Part shown: piece by piece, positions 2,160-61,633 of the stretch
How positions within the stretch are numbered: position 1 is the first letter of the stretch
Layout: the number at the start of each line of letters is the position of its first letter
DNA from: an uncultured Enterobacteriaceae bacterium
GTDB taxonomy: Bacteria > Pseudomonadota > Gammaproteobacteria > Burkholderiales > SG8-39
Reading direction: 5' to 3'
Length of the DNA: 64,000 nt
Assembly (NCBI GenBank): GCA_964631735.1
Contig: CAZVZV010000042.1
Location: 20,321-84,320, forward strand
The notes under the pieces: generated by a model
The model's input: only the letters and a program-made list of their open reading frames with translations
The model's database searches: none
What the model was told of the DNA's origin: nothing
Translations under genes and position numbers: made by a program

Positions 2160-2980
2160 CGCCGCCGCCCCTCGATCAGATCCCAGCCCTCCTCCGTCGC
2201 CACGATGCGCGCGTCAAAATCGCCTGCGTAGGCCGCCACCACCTGCACCGATTGTGTGTCGAGGATACCGGCGAGCGCGACGCGCCCGCCGCGGCGGGTG
2301 CGCGCGGCGAGCAACGGTTCGAGCAGGATCAGGGGCTGGGACAGGATATTGGCCACCACCACGTCGTAGTCGCCGGGCGGCAGTTGCTCCGGCGGGAGCG
2401 CGCGCAATGCGACGCCATTGGTACGCGCATTTGCCATCGTTGCCGCCAACGCCAGCGGATCCACGTCGACGGCGTCGACGCGCGTGGCGCCGAGCTTGGC
2501 GGCGGTGATTGCCAATATACCGGAACCGCAGCCGTAATCGAGCAGGCTCACGCCCGGCGCCAGGCTGCGCTCGAGCCAGCCCAGCACGAGACGCGTACTG
2601 GCGTGGCTGCCGGTGCCGAAGGCCATGCCCGGATCGAGGCGCAGCACGATGCCGTGCGCCGGCGGCTGGTGCCAGCTCGGCACGATCCACAGCCGGTCGG
2701 CGATACAGATCGGCGCGAACTGCGCCTGCGTTTCGCGCACCCAATCCTGGTCGGCGACGGCTTGCAGGGTGAAACTCGGCGGACTGGTCCCAGCCTGTGC
2801 GGCGGCGCGGCCGAGCAACGCCGCCGGATCGGCATCCTGCGCCAGCAGCGCGTGCAGCCGCTGGCGCGGCCGCTCCGGCTCCTCGATCCACACTGAATGC
2901 GCGCCCTGCTCCATCAGCGCTTCGCTCAGCGCCTCGGCCAGCGCCGCCTCGACCTCCAGGGTAAGCCCGGTCCAGGGCAC
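2156..2980 (-). CDS. prmA: Ribosomal protein L11 methyltransferase
   Basis: C-terminal 275 codons of the 773-aa track ORF. Contains DPGMAFGTGSH and LDYGCGSGILAI SAM motifs. The GTG start at 2980 overlaps the accC TAG by 1 nt. The upstream part of the track ORF is an out-of-frame shadow over accC. Confidence 0.9.
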   Translation of the reverse strand: MPWTGLTLEVEAALAEALSEALMEQGAHSVWIEEPERPRQRLHALLAQDADPAALLGRAAAQAGTSPPSFTLQAVADQDWVRETQAQFAPICIADRLWIVPSWHQPPAHGIVLRLDPGMAFGTGSHASTRLVLGWLERSLAPGVSLLDYGCGSGILAITAAKLGATRVDAVDVDPLALAATMANARTNGVALRALPPEQLPPGDYDVVVANILSQPLILLEPLLAARTRRGGRVALAGILDTQSVQVVAAYAGDFDARIVATEEGWDLIEGRRR

Positions 2981-4341
2981 TACTTGACCTTCTGCTTGCT
3001 CTCCTGCGCCAGCTTCTGCTCGAGGTAATGGATCGAGGTGCCGCCGCGCAGGAAGCGGCTGTCGTGCAGCAGCTCGCGGTGCAGCGGGATGTTGTTGGCA
3101 ATGCCCTCGAGCACCATTTCCGAGAGTGCGATGCGCATGCGCCGGATCGCCTGGTCGCGCGTCGCACCGTAGGCGATCAGCTTGCCGACCATCGAGTCGT
3201 AATTGGGCGGCACCGTGTAGCCGGCGTAGATGTGCGTGTCGACGCGGATGCCGGGTCCGCCCGGCGGGTGATACGAGGTGATGCGGCCCGGTGAGGGCGT
3301 GAACCGGTACGGGTCCTCCGCGTTGATGCGGCACTCGATGGCGTGGCCGCGCACCACGATGTCTTTCTGCCGGAAGCGCAGCTTTTCTCCCGCCGCGATG
3401 CGGATCTGCTCCTGCACCAGGTCCACCCCGGTGACCATCTCGGTCACCGGGTGCTCGACCTGGATACGCGTGTTCATCTCGATGAAGTAGAACTCGCCCT
3501 CCTCGTACAGGAATTCGAAGGTGCCGGCGCCGCGGTAGCCGATCTTGCGGCAGGCGTCGGCGCAGCGCTCGCCGATCTTCTCGCGCTGCTTCTCGGTCAG
3601 CTCCGTGGCCGGCGCCTCTTCGATAATCTTCTGGTGGCGCCGCTGCATCGAGCAGTCGCGCTCGCCCAGGTAGATGGCGTTCTTGTGGCTGTCGGCAAGC
3701 ACCTGGATCTCGATGTGGCGCGGGTTCTCCAGAAATTTTTCCATGTATACCGTGGCGTTGCCGAAGGCTGCGTGCGCCTCGCCGCGGGTCATGTTGACGG
3801 CATTGAGCAGCGCCGCCTCGGTATGCACCACCCGCATGCCGCGCCCGCCGCCGCCGCCGGCGGCCTTGATGATCACCGGGTAGGAGACCTTGCGCGCGAT
3901 GCGCACGATCTCCTTGGCATCCTCGGGCAGCGCTCCCTCCGAGCCGGGTACGCAGGGCACCCCGGCCTTGAGCATGGCCTGCTTGGCGCTCACCTTGTCG
4001 CCCATCATGCGGATGTTCTCGGGGCGCGGGCCGATGAACACGAAACCCGAGCGCTCGACGCGTTCGGCGAAATCGGCGTTCTCTGACAGGAAGCCGTAGC
4101 CGGGGTGGATCGCCTCGGCGTCGGTGACTTCCGCGGCGCTGATGATGGCTGCCATGTTCAGGTAGCTGTCGCGCGCCGGCGCCGGGCCGATGCAAACCGA
4201 TTCGTCGGCCAGCTTCACGTACTTGGCCTCGGCGTCGACCGTCGAGTGCACGACCACGGTGCGGATGCCCATCTCGCGGCAGGCGCGCTGGATGCGCAGC
4301 GCGATCTCTCCGCGGTTGGCAATGAGGATCTTCTCGAACAC
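2980..4341 (-). CDS. accC: Acetyl-CoA carboxylase biotin carboxylase subunit
   Basis: 453 aa. [18 protein letters not shown]-terminus and the ATP-grasp motifs [10 protein letters not shown] and [14 protein letters not shown]. Confidence 0.97.
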
Positions 4342-4350
4342 CGGCGGGTG

Positions 4351-4803
4351 CTACTCGATGATGAACAGCGGCTGGCCGTACTCCACCGGCTGGCCGCTCT
4401 CCACCAGGATCGCCTTGATCATGCCGGTGGCGTCGGCTTCGATCTCGTTCATCAGCTTCATCGCTTCGATGATGCACACTGTCTCGCCGGCCTTGACGTT
4501 CTGGCCGACCTCGACGAAGGGCTTGGCTTCCGGCGAAGCCGAGCGGTAAAACGTGCCGACCATCGGCGCCTTGAGCGCGTGGCCGGGCTGGGCTGGTTCC
4601 TCGGCCGCTGCGGCCAGCGCCACTGGCGCCGGGGCAGTGGCCGTCGCGGCGGAGCTTGGCGCCGGGGCGGGGGCGGGGGTGACCGGCGTCACCGTCGCCT
4701 CCCCGCCTTTCACGATCTTCACCTTCTCCTCGCCCTCGGTGATCTCGAGTTCAGCGATGCCGGACACCTGCACGAGGTCGATCAGCTTCTTCAGCTTGCG
4801 CAA
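4351..4803 (-). CDS. accB: Acetyl-CoA carboxylase biotin carboxyl carrier protein (full length, TTG start)
   Basis: 150 aa. Ala/Pro linker and the biotinyl domain MVGTFYRS...[14 protein letters not shown]. The only in-frame start is TTG at 4803, because the expected ATG is AGG here. Confidence 0.92.
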
Positions 4804-4829
4804 ATCCCTGGTTTTCCTCTCCCGGCGGG
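4721..4829. repeat. Direct repeat copy A (accB 5' end plus RBS region)
   Basis: 109 bp. Identical at 104 of 109 positions to 4927-5035 by hand alignment. Period 206 bp. Confidence 0.9.
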
Positions 4830-5015
4830 TAGGGGGGAGGGGGCAGCAGGCCCCACCGCCGGCGGGGCAAAGACTTGCGTCACCGCCGCCGCCTGCGCCC
4901 CGGCGGTCACGCCGCGGCTGATGCGCACCTTTTCTTCGCCCTCGGTGATCTCGAGTTCAGCGATGCCGGACACCTGCACGAGGTCGATCAACTTCTTCAG
5001 CTTGCGCAGATCCAT
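4791..5015 (-). pseudogene. Truncated accB paralogue/remnant (BCCP N-terminal region only)
   Basis: 74-aa ORF: [36 protein letters not shown] plus an Ala/Pro linker. It then runs out of frame into repeat copy A and stops, so it has no biotinyl domain. Confidence 0.6.
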
Positions 5016-5035
5016 GGTTTTCCTCTCCCGGCGGG
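4927..5035. repeat. Direct repeat copy B (accB 5' end plus RBS region)
   Basis: 109 bp, 5 mismatches to copy A. Retains the ATG (plus-strand cat at 5013-5015) preceded by GGAGAGG. Confidence 0.9.
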
Positions 5036-5064
5036 CAAGGCTGCCCGCCACGCGGCGGTCGGCG

Positions 5065-5547
5065 CTAGGCCCCGCCGCTCCCCTTGGCCTTGAGGCGCCC
5101 CAGCGCATAGTCGAGCGCGAGGTCATAGCCCCGGCTGCCCAGCCCGAGGATCGAGCCGACCGCCACGGCGGTGAAATGCGAATGCGCGCGCCACGGCTCG
5201 CGCGCATGGATATTCGACAGGTGCACCTCGACGAAGGGGATCTGCACCGCCGTCAGCGCGTCGCGCAGCGCAATGCTCGAATAGGTGAAGGCGGCTGGGT
5301 TGAGGATGATGAATCCGACGCCGTCGCGCTTGGCCTGTTGTACCCGGTCAACCGCCACTCCTTCATGATTGGTCTGCAGGCAATCGAGCCGGGCACCGGC
5401 GGCCTTGGCCTTGGCGGCGAGCCGCCGCTCGATCATCGGCAGCGTGTCGCGGCCATACAGGTGCGGTTCCCGGGTACCGAGCAGGTTCAGGTTCGGCCCA
5501 TTCAGCAGCAGGATCCACGGAGTTGCTGACTTTTTGGATTTAGCCAT
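5065..5547 (-). CDS. aroQ: Type II 3-dehydroquinate dehydratase
   Basis: 160 aa. ILLLNGPNLNLLGTREPHLYG and HLSNIHAREPWR motifs. Confidence 0.95.
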   Translation of the reverse strand: MAKSKKSATPWILLLNGPNLNLLGTREPHLYGRDTLPMIERRLAAKAKAAGARLDCLQTNHEGVAVDRVQQAKRDGVGFIILNPAAFTYSSIALRDALTAVQIPFVEVHLSNIHAREPWRAHSHFTAVAVGSILGLGSRGYDLALDYALGRLKAKGSGGA

Positions 5548-5707: not shown

Positions 5708-6340
5708 TTAACCACTCTTTCCCAGCATTTGACCGACTTCAACGATGCCCGCTCGGTCCATGACCCGCCCCGCAAGGGAGGTTTTCAGCGCCACGCGCTC
5801 GTCGCGAGGGTCGAACACAGAAAGGCGCAAGGGGGTATCGAGCCACTCGAGCTTGTACACGCTCACGGCGCGGGCCCGGTCGCCCGAGTAGCGTCGCCCC
5901 TCGGCTGTATCGAAGGCGATGTTGCGCTCCAGCAGGAACAGCTCGACGTCCTTGGGACTGTCCGGATAGAGCTGCAGGTCGACCTCCGCGTAGGGTCCGG
6001 CGATCCCTTTCAGCACCGGCCCGGTGAGGTAAGGGCTGAATCGCTCGAGCGCCCGCATGGCGTCGAGCGCCACCCGGCGCAGTTCGGCGATGCGTTCGGG
6101 ATGCTCGTCGGCCTGGTACAAAGCGCGATAGGCGCGCAGTTCGGCTTCGATTTCGTCGTTGGTGGGGAGCGACTCGGTATCGGCAGCGCCCAGCTGGCGC
6201 GCCGCCTTGCGTTTGGCAAGGGCGAAGTTGTCGATGCCATCCTCGGCCATCAGGCGCGCCGCCGCCGCGGCGATCCGCGAGCGCATGCCGTCATGCCGCG
6301 AAGAAGCCCGGCGGCTCATAGCGGGCGCATGATAGCGCAC
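5708..6340 (-). CDS. Conserved hypothetical protein
   Basis: 210-aa ORF divergent from mpl. The codon pattern looks coding. Start is ambiguous (GTG 6340 or ATG 6319). I recognise no family. Confidence 0.55.
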   Translation of the reverse strand: MRYHAPAMSRRASSRHDGMRSRIAAAAARLMAEDGIDNFALAKRKAARQLGAADTESLPTNDEIEAELRAYRALYQADEHPERIAELRRVALDAMRALERFSPYLTGPVLKGIAGPYAEVDLQLYPDSPKDVELFLLERNIAFDTAEGRRYSGDRARAVSVYKLEWLDTPLRLSVFDPRDERVALKTSLAGRVMDRAGIVEVGQMLGKSG

Positions 6341-59449: not shown

Positions 59450-60586
59450 TTAAACGATATCCAGGTGCTCGATGCCCTTGGTCAGGTCGCGGTCCTTGGC
59501 TTCCTTGCCGTGCAGTTTGATCTGCAGCCGCACTTCGTTGGTCGAGTCGGCGAAGCGCAGGGCGTCCTCGTAGCCGATGCGGCCCTGCTCGTACAAGTCG
59601 AACAGGGCCTGGTCGAAGGTCTGCATGCCCAGTTCGCGCGACTTCTTCATGATGTCCTTGATGCCGTGCACCTCGCCCTTGAAGATCAGGTCCGAGATCA
59701 GCGGGGAATTGAGCAGCACCTCCACCGCCGCGGCGCGGCCGCGGCCCTCCCGCATCGGGATCAGGCGCTGCGAGATCACCCCCTTCAGGTTGAGCGACAG
59801 GTCCATCAGCAACTGCTGGCGCCGCTCGTCCGGGAAGAAGTTGATGATGCGGTCCATCGCCTGGTTGGAGTTGTTGGCGTGCAGCGTGCCCAGGCACAGG
59901 TGGCCGGTCTCGGAGAAGGCGATGGCGTGCTCCATCACCTCGCGCTCGCGGATCTCGCCGATCAGGATCACATCCGGCGCCTGGCGCAGGGTGTTCTTCA
60001 GCGCCGCTTCCCAGGAGTCGGTGTCCACGCCCACTTCGCGCTGGGTAACGATGCAGTTCTTGTGCGGGTGCACGAACTCCACCGGGTCCTCGATGGTGAT
60101 GATGTGGCCGTGCGAGTTCTCGTTGCGGTAGCCGATCATCGCCGCGAGGGAGCTGGACTTGCCCGAGCCCGTGCCGCCGACGAAGATCACCAGGCCGCGC
60201 TTGGTCATCGCCACGTCCTTCAGCACCGGCGGCAGCATCAGGTCCTCGAAAGTGGGGATGGTGGTGGTGATCACGCGCAGCACCATGCCGACGTTGCCCT
60301 GTTGCACGAAGCAATTGACGCGGAAGCGCCCGATGGCCGCCGGGTTGATGGCGAAGTTGCACTCCTTTTTCTCCTCGAACTCGGCCGCCTGCTTGTCGTT
60401 CATGATCGAGCGCGTCAGCATCGAGGTGTGCTGGGGTGAGAGCCCTTGCTGCGATACCGGGGTCATCTTGCCGTCGATCTTCATTGCCGGCGGATAACCG
60501 GTGGTGATGAACAGGTCCGAGCCCTTCTTGCCCACCAGGGCTCGCAGCAGGTCGTACATGAATTTTGTCGCTTGCTCGCGTTCCAT
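59450..60586 (-). CDS. pilU: Type IV pilus ATPase PilU
   Basis: 378 aa. Walker A GGTGSGKSS and the PilT-family Asp/His boxes (IGEIRE, GTLHAN). Sits downstream of pilT. Confidence 0.9.
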   Translation of the reverse strand: MEREQATKFMYDLLRALVGKKGSDLFITTGYPPAMKIDGKMTPVSQQGLSPQHTSMLTRSIMNDKQAAEFEEKKECNFAINPAAIGRFRVNCFVQQGNVGMVLRVITTTIPTFEDLMLPPVLKDVAMTKRGLVIFVGGTGSGKSSSLAAMIGYRNENSHGHIITIEDPVEFVHPHKNCIVTQREVGVDTDSWEAALKNTLRQAPDVILIGEIREREVMEHAIAFSETGHLCLGTLHANNSNQAMDRIINFFPDERRQQLLMDLSLNLKGVISQRLIPMREGRGRAAAVEVLLNSPLISDLIFKGEVHGIKDIMKKSRELGMQTFDQALFDLYEQGRIGYEDALRFADSTNEVRLQIKLHGKEAKDRDLTKGIEHLDIV

Positions 60587-60589
60587 GGC

Positions 60590-61633
60590 TTACCCCGCGA
60601 AGTTGTCTTTGTTGGCGGCCCTGCTGCGCGCCTCGCCCATCGACACCACGTTGCGCCGCACGAGGTCCTGCAGGTTCTGATCCAGCGTCTGCATGCCGAT
60701 CTGCGCACCGGTCTGGATGGCGGAATACATCTGCGCGATCTTGCTCTCGCGGATCAGGTTGCGGATGGCGGGGGTGCCGATCATGACCTCGTGCGCCGCG
60801 ACGCGCCCCGCGCCGTCCTTGGTCTTGAGCAGGTTCTGCGAGATCACTGCGCGCAGCGACTCGGAAAGCATGGCGCGCACCATTTCCTTTTCCGCCGCCG
60901 GGAACACGTCGATGATGCGGTCGATCGTCTTCGCTGCCGAGCTCGTGTGCAGCGTGGCGAACACGAGGTGGCCGGTTTCGGCGCCGGTCAGCGCGAGCCG
61001 GATCGTTTCCAGGTCGCGCATCTCGCCGACGAGGATCACATCCGGGTCTTCGCGCGTCGAGGACCTGAGAGCGTTCGAAAACGACAGCGTGTGCGGTCCG
61101 ACCTCGCGCTGGTTGATCAGGCACTTTTTCGACTCGTGCATGAACTCGATCGGGTCCTCCATGGTGAGGATGTGGCCTTCCTCGTTCTCGTTGATGTGGT
61201 TGATCATCGCCGCCAGCGTGGTGGACTTGCCCGAGCCCGTGGGCCCGGTCACCAGCACCAGCCCGCGCGGGTACTCCGAGATCTCGGTGAAGATCTTCGG
61301 GCACTTGAGCTCTTCCAGCGACATGACCTTGGTCGGGATGGTGCGCATCACCGCGGCGGCGCCGCGCTGCTGCACGAAGGCATTGACGCGAAAGCGCGCC
61401 AGGTTCGGCACCGCGAAGGAGAAGTCGCACTCCAGATTCTCTTCGTAGAACTTGCGCTGGCCGTCGTTCATGATGTCGTACATCATCCCGTGCACGTCCT
61501 TGTGCTCCAGCGCCGGCACATTGATGCGCTTGACGTCGCCGTGCACGCGCACCATCGGCGGCAGGCCCGCGGACAGGTGCAGGTCGGATGCCTTGTTCTT
61601 CACCACAAACGCAAGCAATTCAGTGAGATCCAT
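60590..61633 (-). CDS. pilT: Type IV pilus twitching motility ATPase PilT
   Basis: 347 aa. GPTGSGKSTT, ILVGEMRD, ATLHTSSA, and the AIRNLIRE motif typical of PilT. Confidence 0.95.
   Translation of the reverse strand: MDLTELLAFVVKNKASDLHLSAGLPPMVRVHGDVKRINVPALEHKDVHGMMYDIMNDGQRKFYEENLECDFSFAVPNLARFRVNAFVQQRGAAAVMRTIPTKVMSLEELKCPKIFTEISEYPRGLVLVTGPTGSGKSTTLAAMINHINENEEGHILTMEDPIEFMHESKKCLINQREVGPHTLSFSNALRSSTREDPDVILVGEMRDLETIRLALTGAETGHLVFATLHTSSAAKTIDRIIDVFPAAEKEMVRAMLSESLRAVISQNLLKTKDGAGRVAAHEVMIGTPAIRNLIRESKIAQMYSAIQTGAQIGMQTLDQNLQDLVRRNVVSMGEARSRAANKDNFAG

Follow-up and report, generated by a model that had tools for sequence, protein, structure and literature searches.

Duplication of the accB 5′ End in a Burkholderiales Metagenome Contig, Probably an Assembly Chimera of Two Co-occurring Populations

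The 5′ end of accB, the gene for the biotin carboxyl carrier protein BCCP, is present twice in the window (the whole 64,000-nt stretch of DNA that was analysed), and the arrangement is probably an inter-population chimera formed during metagenome assembly. Between aroQ and accB-accC, the minus strand carries two near-identical copies, R1 and R2, and the linker sequence that joins them is identical to accB of a different Burkholderiales organism, here called organism Y. An earlier sequence-only reading of this DNA had added the caveat that the duplication might be nothing more than a scar or an artefact of assembly. That caveat is now the best-supported reading, based on the identity to Y, the breaks in independently assembled contigs, and the absence of the duplication in relatives. 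An artefactual origin is judged probable from contig comparison.

Organization of the Repeat Pair

R1 and R2 are each 115 nt long, match at 108 of 115 positions (94% identity), and lie 206 nt apart. They share a 110-nt core (4720-4829 and 4926-5035) with exactly five mismatches, and their longest common run is 55 nt. Both contain CCCGCCGGGAGAGGAAAACC and BCCP codons 1-30, and past codon 30 the linkers of the two copies are unrelated. The sequence-only reading had described two near-identical copies of the accB 5′ end with five differences, each with a ribosome-binding region and the first BCCP codons, and this description is accurate. BLAST within the window recovers the second repeat copy at E = 9e-48 and finds neither a third copy nor a second accB. 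Feature coordinates are collected in Table 1.

Simple tandem duplication, whether by slippage or unequal crossing-over, fails as an explanation since the whole 206-nt unit is not doubled: only 110-115 nt are repeated, and the intervening 96-106 nt occur in single copy in the window. The foreign linker was also considered as a rearranged or inverted native linker, for which the window comparison gave no significant match. Between 4000 and 6000, no promoter-like sites, terminator-like sites, or Rfam families were found.

Table 1. Features of the aroQ-accB-accC region and end points of near-identical contigs (window coordinates).
Feature	Position	Strand	Content	Basis
aroQ	5065..5547	-	3-dehydroquinate dehydratase II, 160 aa; native upstream neighbour	ORF
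Native aroQ-accB intergenic region	5016..5064	-	includes the GGAGAGG ribosome-binding site of R1	
R1	4926..5040	-	ribosome-binding site, ATG 5015, BCCP codons 1-30	repeat comparison
Chimeric 74-aa ORF	4791..5015	-	ATG 5015 to TGA 4793-4791	
Tract identical to organism Y accB	4821..4955	-	135 nt, L094 allele	longest common substring
Left junction	4936..4955	-	20-nt stretch CTCGAGATCACCGAGGGCGA	identical in native accB and Y accB
Right junction	4821..4829	-	9-nt microhomology CCCGCCGGG	alignment with Y
R2	4720..4834	-	ribosome-binding site, AGG 4809-4807 where ATG is expected, TTG 4803, BCCP codons 3-30	
Native accB (BCCP) from TTG	4351..4803	-	150 aa	linker orthologous to closest relatives
accC	2980..4341	-	biotin carboxylase, 453 aa; downstream in the operon	95.6% identical to L001
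R1/R2 core mismatches	5014/4808 T>G; 5009/4803 C>T; 4991/4785 T>C; 4935/4729 A>G; 4932/4726 A>G	-		
Contig L085 (Logan SRR9952632)	stops at 4974		99.97% identical to window	
Contig L086 (JGI)	stops at 4960		99.7% identical to window	
Contig L087 (Logan SRR9952630)	stops at 4989		99.9% identical to window	

The Two Reading Frames

The upstream reading frame starts at an ATG with 6-nt spacing from the native ribosome-binding site and encodes native BCCP codons 1-20, the organism-Y linker, and an out-of-frame tail (RGKPGICAS). It enters R2 out of frame because 206 leaves a remainder of 2 when divided by 3, and its TGA lies inside R2, 10 nt downstream of TTG 4803. An ATG-started 74-aa frame that ends out of frame in the downstream copy, as first proposed from the sequence, is thus what the ORF reading gives. 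The frame has been called as protein P0121, which matches no Pfam family and is known from a single record, the 87,358-bp NCBI MAG contig to which the window belongs. By exact-sequence look-up, P0121 clusters at ≥90% identity with the full-length 153-154-aa AccB proteins P0122-P0124, all of which belong to organism Y.

The downstream accB lacks the canonical ATG-GAT (MD[LI]RK) start. With AGG in place of ATG, the first in-frame start of the gene is TTG 4803, in agreement with the sequence-only reading. The GGAGAGG of R2 is intact at a 12-nt spacing from this TTG, which is already codon 3 in relatives L083 and L084. The 150-aa BCCP keeps an intact Biotin_lipoyl domain (PF00364, E 5.8e-25, residues 76-149) with the biotin-attachment motif EAMKLM. 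It is 97% identical to P0137, a protein that opens with a normal MDLRK. An AGG start occurs in none of the 96 fetched loci, which start with ATG and once with GTG, and the 150-aa product is known only from the same single contig as the 74-aa product.

The Native Locus and Its Relatives

The window genes are closest to those of the Burkholderiales MAGs L001 and L002, at 95.6% for accC, 87.5-88.5% for aroQ, and 78-81% for AccB; for L001, the values are 81% for AccB and 87.5% for aroQ. The window locus shares the gene order aroQ-accB-accC-prmA. Judged by its linker, synteny, and closest relatives, the downstream accB is the native orthologue, because its linker matches those of L001 and L002. The spacer in front of R1 is homologous to the L001 aroQ-accB spacer, and its 5016-5064 portion is identical to that of L085-L087 and one base different from that of L083 and L084. 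By this alignment, it is the native aroQ-accB spacer.

A scan of species-representative genomes provided 80 accB loci, and each of the 80 has a single BCCP N-terminus with an MD(L/I)RK start, encoded from ATG in 79 and GTG in one. Two closer loci, L083 and L084, were found by a DNA-pattern scan of metagenomes and are ~93% identical to the window. They carry the same spacer, followed directly by ATG-GAT-TTG and the native accB. Both align with the window as two blocks, the first up to R1 and the second from R2 onward, so the window has a 206-nt insertion relative to them. The duplication is absent from all 80 species representatives (0/80) and from L083, L084, L092, and L093. The comparison with close relatives proposed in the sequence-only reading has thus been run, and it finds no upstream copy and an accB that starts with ATG not only in those 79 representatives but also in L083, L084, and L092.

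A Linker Tract from Organism Y

The 135-nt tract is an exact match to the L094 allele of Y accB, and the Y alleles L088-L091 differ from it solely by a 3-nt indel. Its Y-only part spans 106 nt (4830-4935), and the remainder of Y accBC is only 76.7% identical to the window. Organism Y has the gene order dsbD-tlpA-aroQ-accB-accC-prmA with a 151-aa aroQ product. The sequence-only reading had proposed replacement or recombination of the accB body rather than slippage. Recombination over slippage is supported by the 100% DNA match of the upstream linker to another organism's accB. Replacement of the accB body is not, because the downstream gene is native and the upstream frame joins a linker of foreign origin to native codons 1-20.

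The tract is bounded by a homology anchor on one side and a short microhomology on the other, a feature that fits real recombination but does not discriminate against an artefact. At the left junction, the 20 nt are exact and widely shared, with CTCGAGATCACCGAGGGCGA present in 15 of the 96 fetched loci, and those 15 belong to several lineages. At the right junction, only 9 nt are shared: CCCGCCGGG encodes ..PAG.. of the linker in Y and lies just upstream of the ribosome-binding site in the native genome. The passage from native to Y sequence spans 4956/4935 and that from Y to native 4830/4820, and the 31-mers CCCCCCTACCCGCCGGGAGAGGAAAACCAGG and GCTGAACTCGAGATCACCGAGGGCGAAGAAA mark the R1-linker-R2 junctions.

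Neither the junction string CTACCCGCCGGGAGAGG nor the Val14 haplotype (GTG/GCT) CAGGTGTCCGGCATCGCTGAA occurs in the 96 fetched loci. A junction-spanning protein query found the Y-to-native junction nowhere else, a weak negative given that the search also missed the window's own AccB (P0125). A word-indexed protein search with the 74-aa query likewise missed the expected P0122, which makes its negatives weak.

The two parts of the structure differ in divergence. R1 and R2 show three differences in 80 native-derived nucleotides, whereas the Y tract shows none in 106-135 nt. If the R1/R2 rate applied, zero differences would have a Poisson probability of 0.019 over 106 nt and 0.006 over 135 nt.

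Contigs of the Same Population

L085, L086, and L087 were assembled independently, and all three end inside R1. Together they contain at least two further accB 5′ haplotypes that equal neither R1 nor R2. The identity between the window and L085 extends over 3.6 kb with no gaps, and the window AroQ protein has an exact match in all three contigs. JGI sample 3300037264 holds both organism Y (L089) and the native population (L086, L092).

L092 carries a native accB-accC with a normal ATG-GAT start (P0137, MDLRK...QESG). It differs from the window at 18 positions in the first 80 nt and then at 11 in the next 1750 nt, and its ancestry changes exactly at R2's copy of CTCGAGATCACCGAGGGCGA (window 4749). 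L092 switches at the 20-mer common to 15 of 96 loci, which demonstrates that assemblies of this community can cross between lineages at the accB 5′ end. The first 90 nt of L092 are most like other Burkholderiales lineages (~90% identity to L001).

Exact protein look-ups on the two sides of the junction match the same Logan runs, with PrmA and a DUF3426 protein on one side and AroQ, Mpl, YqiA, and AroE on the other. These look-ups show no strain switch across the junction.

Origin of the Duplicated 5′ End

In the preferred reading, the true locus would be aroQ, spacer, ATG-started accB, and accC, as in every relative. The accB 5′ end probably contains k-mers common to several co-occurring Burkholderiales populations. 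An assembler path would follow the native aroQ-accB spacer and accB codons 1-20 into the common 20-mer CTCGAGATCACCGAGGGCGA, exit on Y, track the Y linker for ~106 nt, and rejoin native sequence at CCCGCCGGG, just upstream of the native ribosome-binding site. Since it rejoins upstream of this site, the path would write the native accB 5′ end twice. The small R1/R2 differences would be strain variants of the native population, chosen differently on the two passes, and the AGG "start" would reflect either an error or an uncommon variant. Neither the 74-aa ORF nor the TTG start would then have any biology behind it, and both would be by-products.

Several lines of evidence favour the chimera. The tract is identical to Y over its full 135 nt though the two accBC sequences otherwise diverge, Y and the native population share a sample, and the left junction is an exact stretch found across lineages. 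L085-L087 all stop inside R1, and L092, which has a normal ATG, changes ancestry at the same 20-mer. The duplication is absent from the 80 representatives and from L083 and L084, and the 74-aa and 150-aa products are known from one contig only. The mismatch between the two clocks, three differences in R1/R2 and none in the Y tract, favours the chimera and disfavours an old real event. A length of 20 nt corresponds to k-1 at k=21, which MEGAHIT and SPAdes usually take as their smallest value.

Other observations count against the chimera. The right junction shares just 9 nt, which a plain de Bruijn graph with k ≥21 would not join, so the join would require a scaffolder or gap-closer able to fuse ends with short overlaps. 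SPAdes has a step of this kind. R1 and R2 share no run longer than 55 nt, so an assembler with large k should handle a genuine repeat without trouble. Only the window has the AGG and the Val14 haplotype, which an artefact explains poorly, and the exact Logan protein matches give no sign of a change of strain.

Metagenome assemblers can concatenate population-specific variable regions that are flanked by a conserved locus, as depicted in Fig. 4A of a preprint (bioRxiv 10.1101/2025.04.22.649783). The present structure resembles the chimeras depicted there in that the conserved accB codons 1-30 are doubled and the Y linker is placed ahead of the native linker. It also resembles them in that the donor population is in the same sample and one conserved k-mer is where independent assemblies either end or change ancestry. 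Unlike the cases in the preprint, which involve long-read assemblers and mostly larger regions, the patch here is 206 nt and includes one 9-nt overlap.

If the chimera reading is true, it serves as a warning that an assembly can cross from one co-occurring population to another where the 5′ ends of housekeeping genes are conserved. The contig of a MAG would thereby gain a false duplication, a spurious 74-aa ORF, and an odd TTG start on an essential gene. The products of such a chimera would already be in public protein collections as P0121 and P0125.

Alternative Explanations

The principal alternative, which is possible but considered unlikely, is a real but non-functional recombination scar in this one strain, in which ~106-135 nt of accB from the cohabiting organism Y were copied in by template switching or homology-facilitated illegitimate recombination. 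Entry would have been in register at the 20-nt stretch and exit at CCCGCCGGG, 115 nt upstream, which would duplicate the ribosome-binding site and codons 1-30. The native promoter and ribosome-binding site would be spent on a useless chimeric peptide of 74 aa, and AccB would be translated from the R2 GGAGAGG and TTG 4803, or by termination-reinitiation at TGA 4793-4791.

The junctions themselves speak for such an event, as a 20-nt stretch paired with a 9-nt GC-rich microhomology is what illegitimate recombination typically leaves and is hard for a de Bruijn assembler to produce. The genes on both flanks match the same Logan samples exactly. The Shine-Dalgarno sequence of R2 is intact, and its TTG is already codon 3 in L083 and L084. 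Loss of the ATG would be more tolerable if ribosomes are delivered by the upstream ORF, whose stop falls in the region where accB starts. However, the arrangement is found in one contig only, its junction is absent from 96 of 96 fetched loci, and same-population contigs from the same samples break here or show a normal ATG start. A scar requires extra assumptions to reconcile zero divergence in the Y tract with three R1/R2 differences. Its topology is crossed, with the exit site upstream of the entry site, and would need two template molecules. Selection would also be expected to act against a 206-nt insertion and the loss of a start codon before an essential gene.

Homology-facilitated and short-patch double illegitimate recombination have reportedly been described in naturally transformable bacteria, by de Vries and Wackernagel in 2002 and Harms et al. 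in 2016. The window resembles such events in its short foreign tract, its 20-nt anchor with a 9-nt GC-rich microhomology, and its donor, a cohabiting relative. That process normally replaces or inserts DNA in register, whereas here the exit would lie upstream of the entry and yield a 110-nt duplication. If real, the structure would represent natural short-patch capture of inter-genus DNA at microhomologies before an essential gene, though still a strain-specific scar.

Far less probable is a real structure that encodes a functional BCCP N-terminal mini-protein. The 74-aa peptide would modulate accBC autoregulation or titrate AccC, and AccB would be made from TTG by translational coupling. The frame does have the native ribosome-binding site and an ATG at 6-nt spacing. 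E. coli accBC transcription is autoregulated via the AccB N-terminal domain (James and Cronan 2004, as cited in PMC3896788), and the 74-aa ORF has the homologous N-terminal ~30 residues and part of the Ala/Pro linker. The E. coli regulator is full-length AccB from a single gene, whereas the fragment here is unconserved in any relative, including the ~93%-identical and same-population contigs. The peptide matches no Pfam family and is a mosaic whose tail is read out of frame, and its linker copies the DNA of another organism exactly, which leaves no time for selection. No separately encoded AccB N-terminal fragment is known in E. coli. The suggestion made from the sequence that a separately expressed N-terminal fragment could matter for regulation is not borne out, given its absence from all 80 representatives, L083, L084, and L092.

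Short BCCP N-terminal ORFs were also considered as a family and rejected. Normal accB genes, either frameshifted or truncated at a contig end, account for the other short "BCCP N-terminal" database proteins examined: P0001 (L081) is a frameshifted accB on a long-read contig, and P0008 (L082) is a gene cut by a contig end. In L081:2164-2872, on a 625-kb ENA contig from a Y-like organism, aroQ is shortened to 79 aa, and accB falls into two pieces, of 58 and 70 aa. These breaks look like indel errors, and they yield unreal "short BCCP N-terminal proteins" in databases.

Least probable of all is an in-frame N-terminal duplication masked by a one-base indel error in a C5-T-C6 run: one extra C, added at 4838-4843, would give a continuous ORF from MDLRK onward to the biotinyl domain, a 219-aa BCCP whose N-terminal segment occurs twice, with AGG as an internal Arg codon and the loss of ATG harmless, but the run lies within the Y-identical tract and has the donor's length with no sign of homopolymer error, the gap-free alignment with L085 shows no general indel noise, and protein searches found no doubled BCCP.

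Other Features of the Window

The only other direct repeat in the window is a pair of adjacent T2SSE/PilT-like ATPase genes (59453-61633, minus strand; 378 and 347 aa). With 71-74% identity and a spacing of 1068, they are ordinary tandem paralogues. Between mpl and aroQ, a 210-aa ORF (5708-6340, minus strand) has no Pfam family, and the near-identical contigs L085-L087 have a called gene of 192-203 aa at this site.

A 31-nt indel separates the window from L092 at 2974-3004, at the accC 3′ end and accC-prmA junction. In L092, this indel fuses accC into a 698-aa ORF (P0133). The Logan contigs L095 and L096 both start 60 nt upstream of prmA, adjoining the indel, which makes this the second site where the local structure varies or the assembly breaks.
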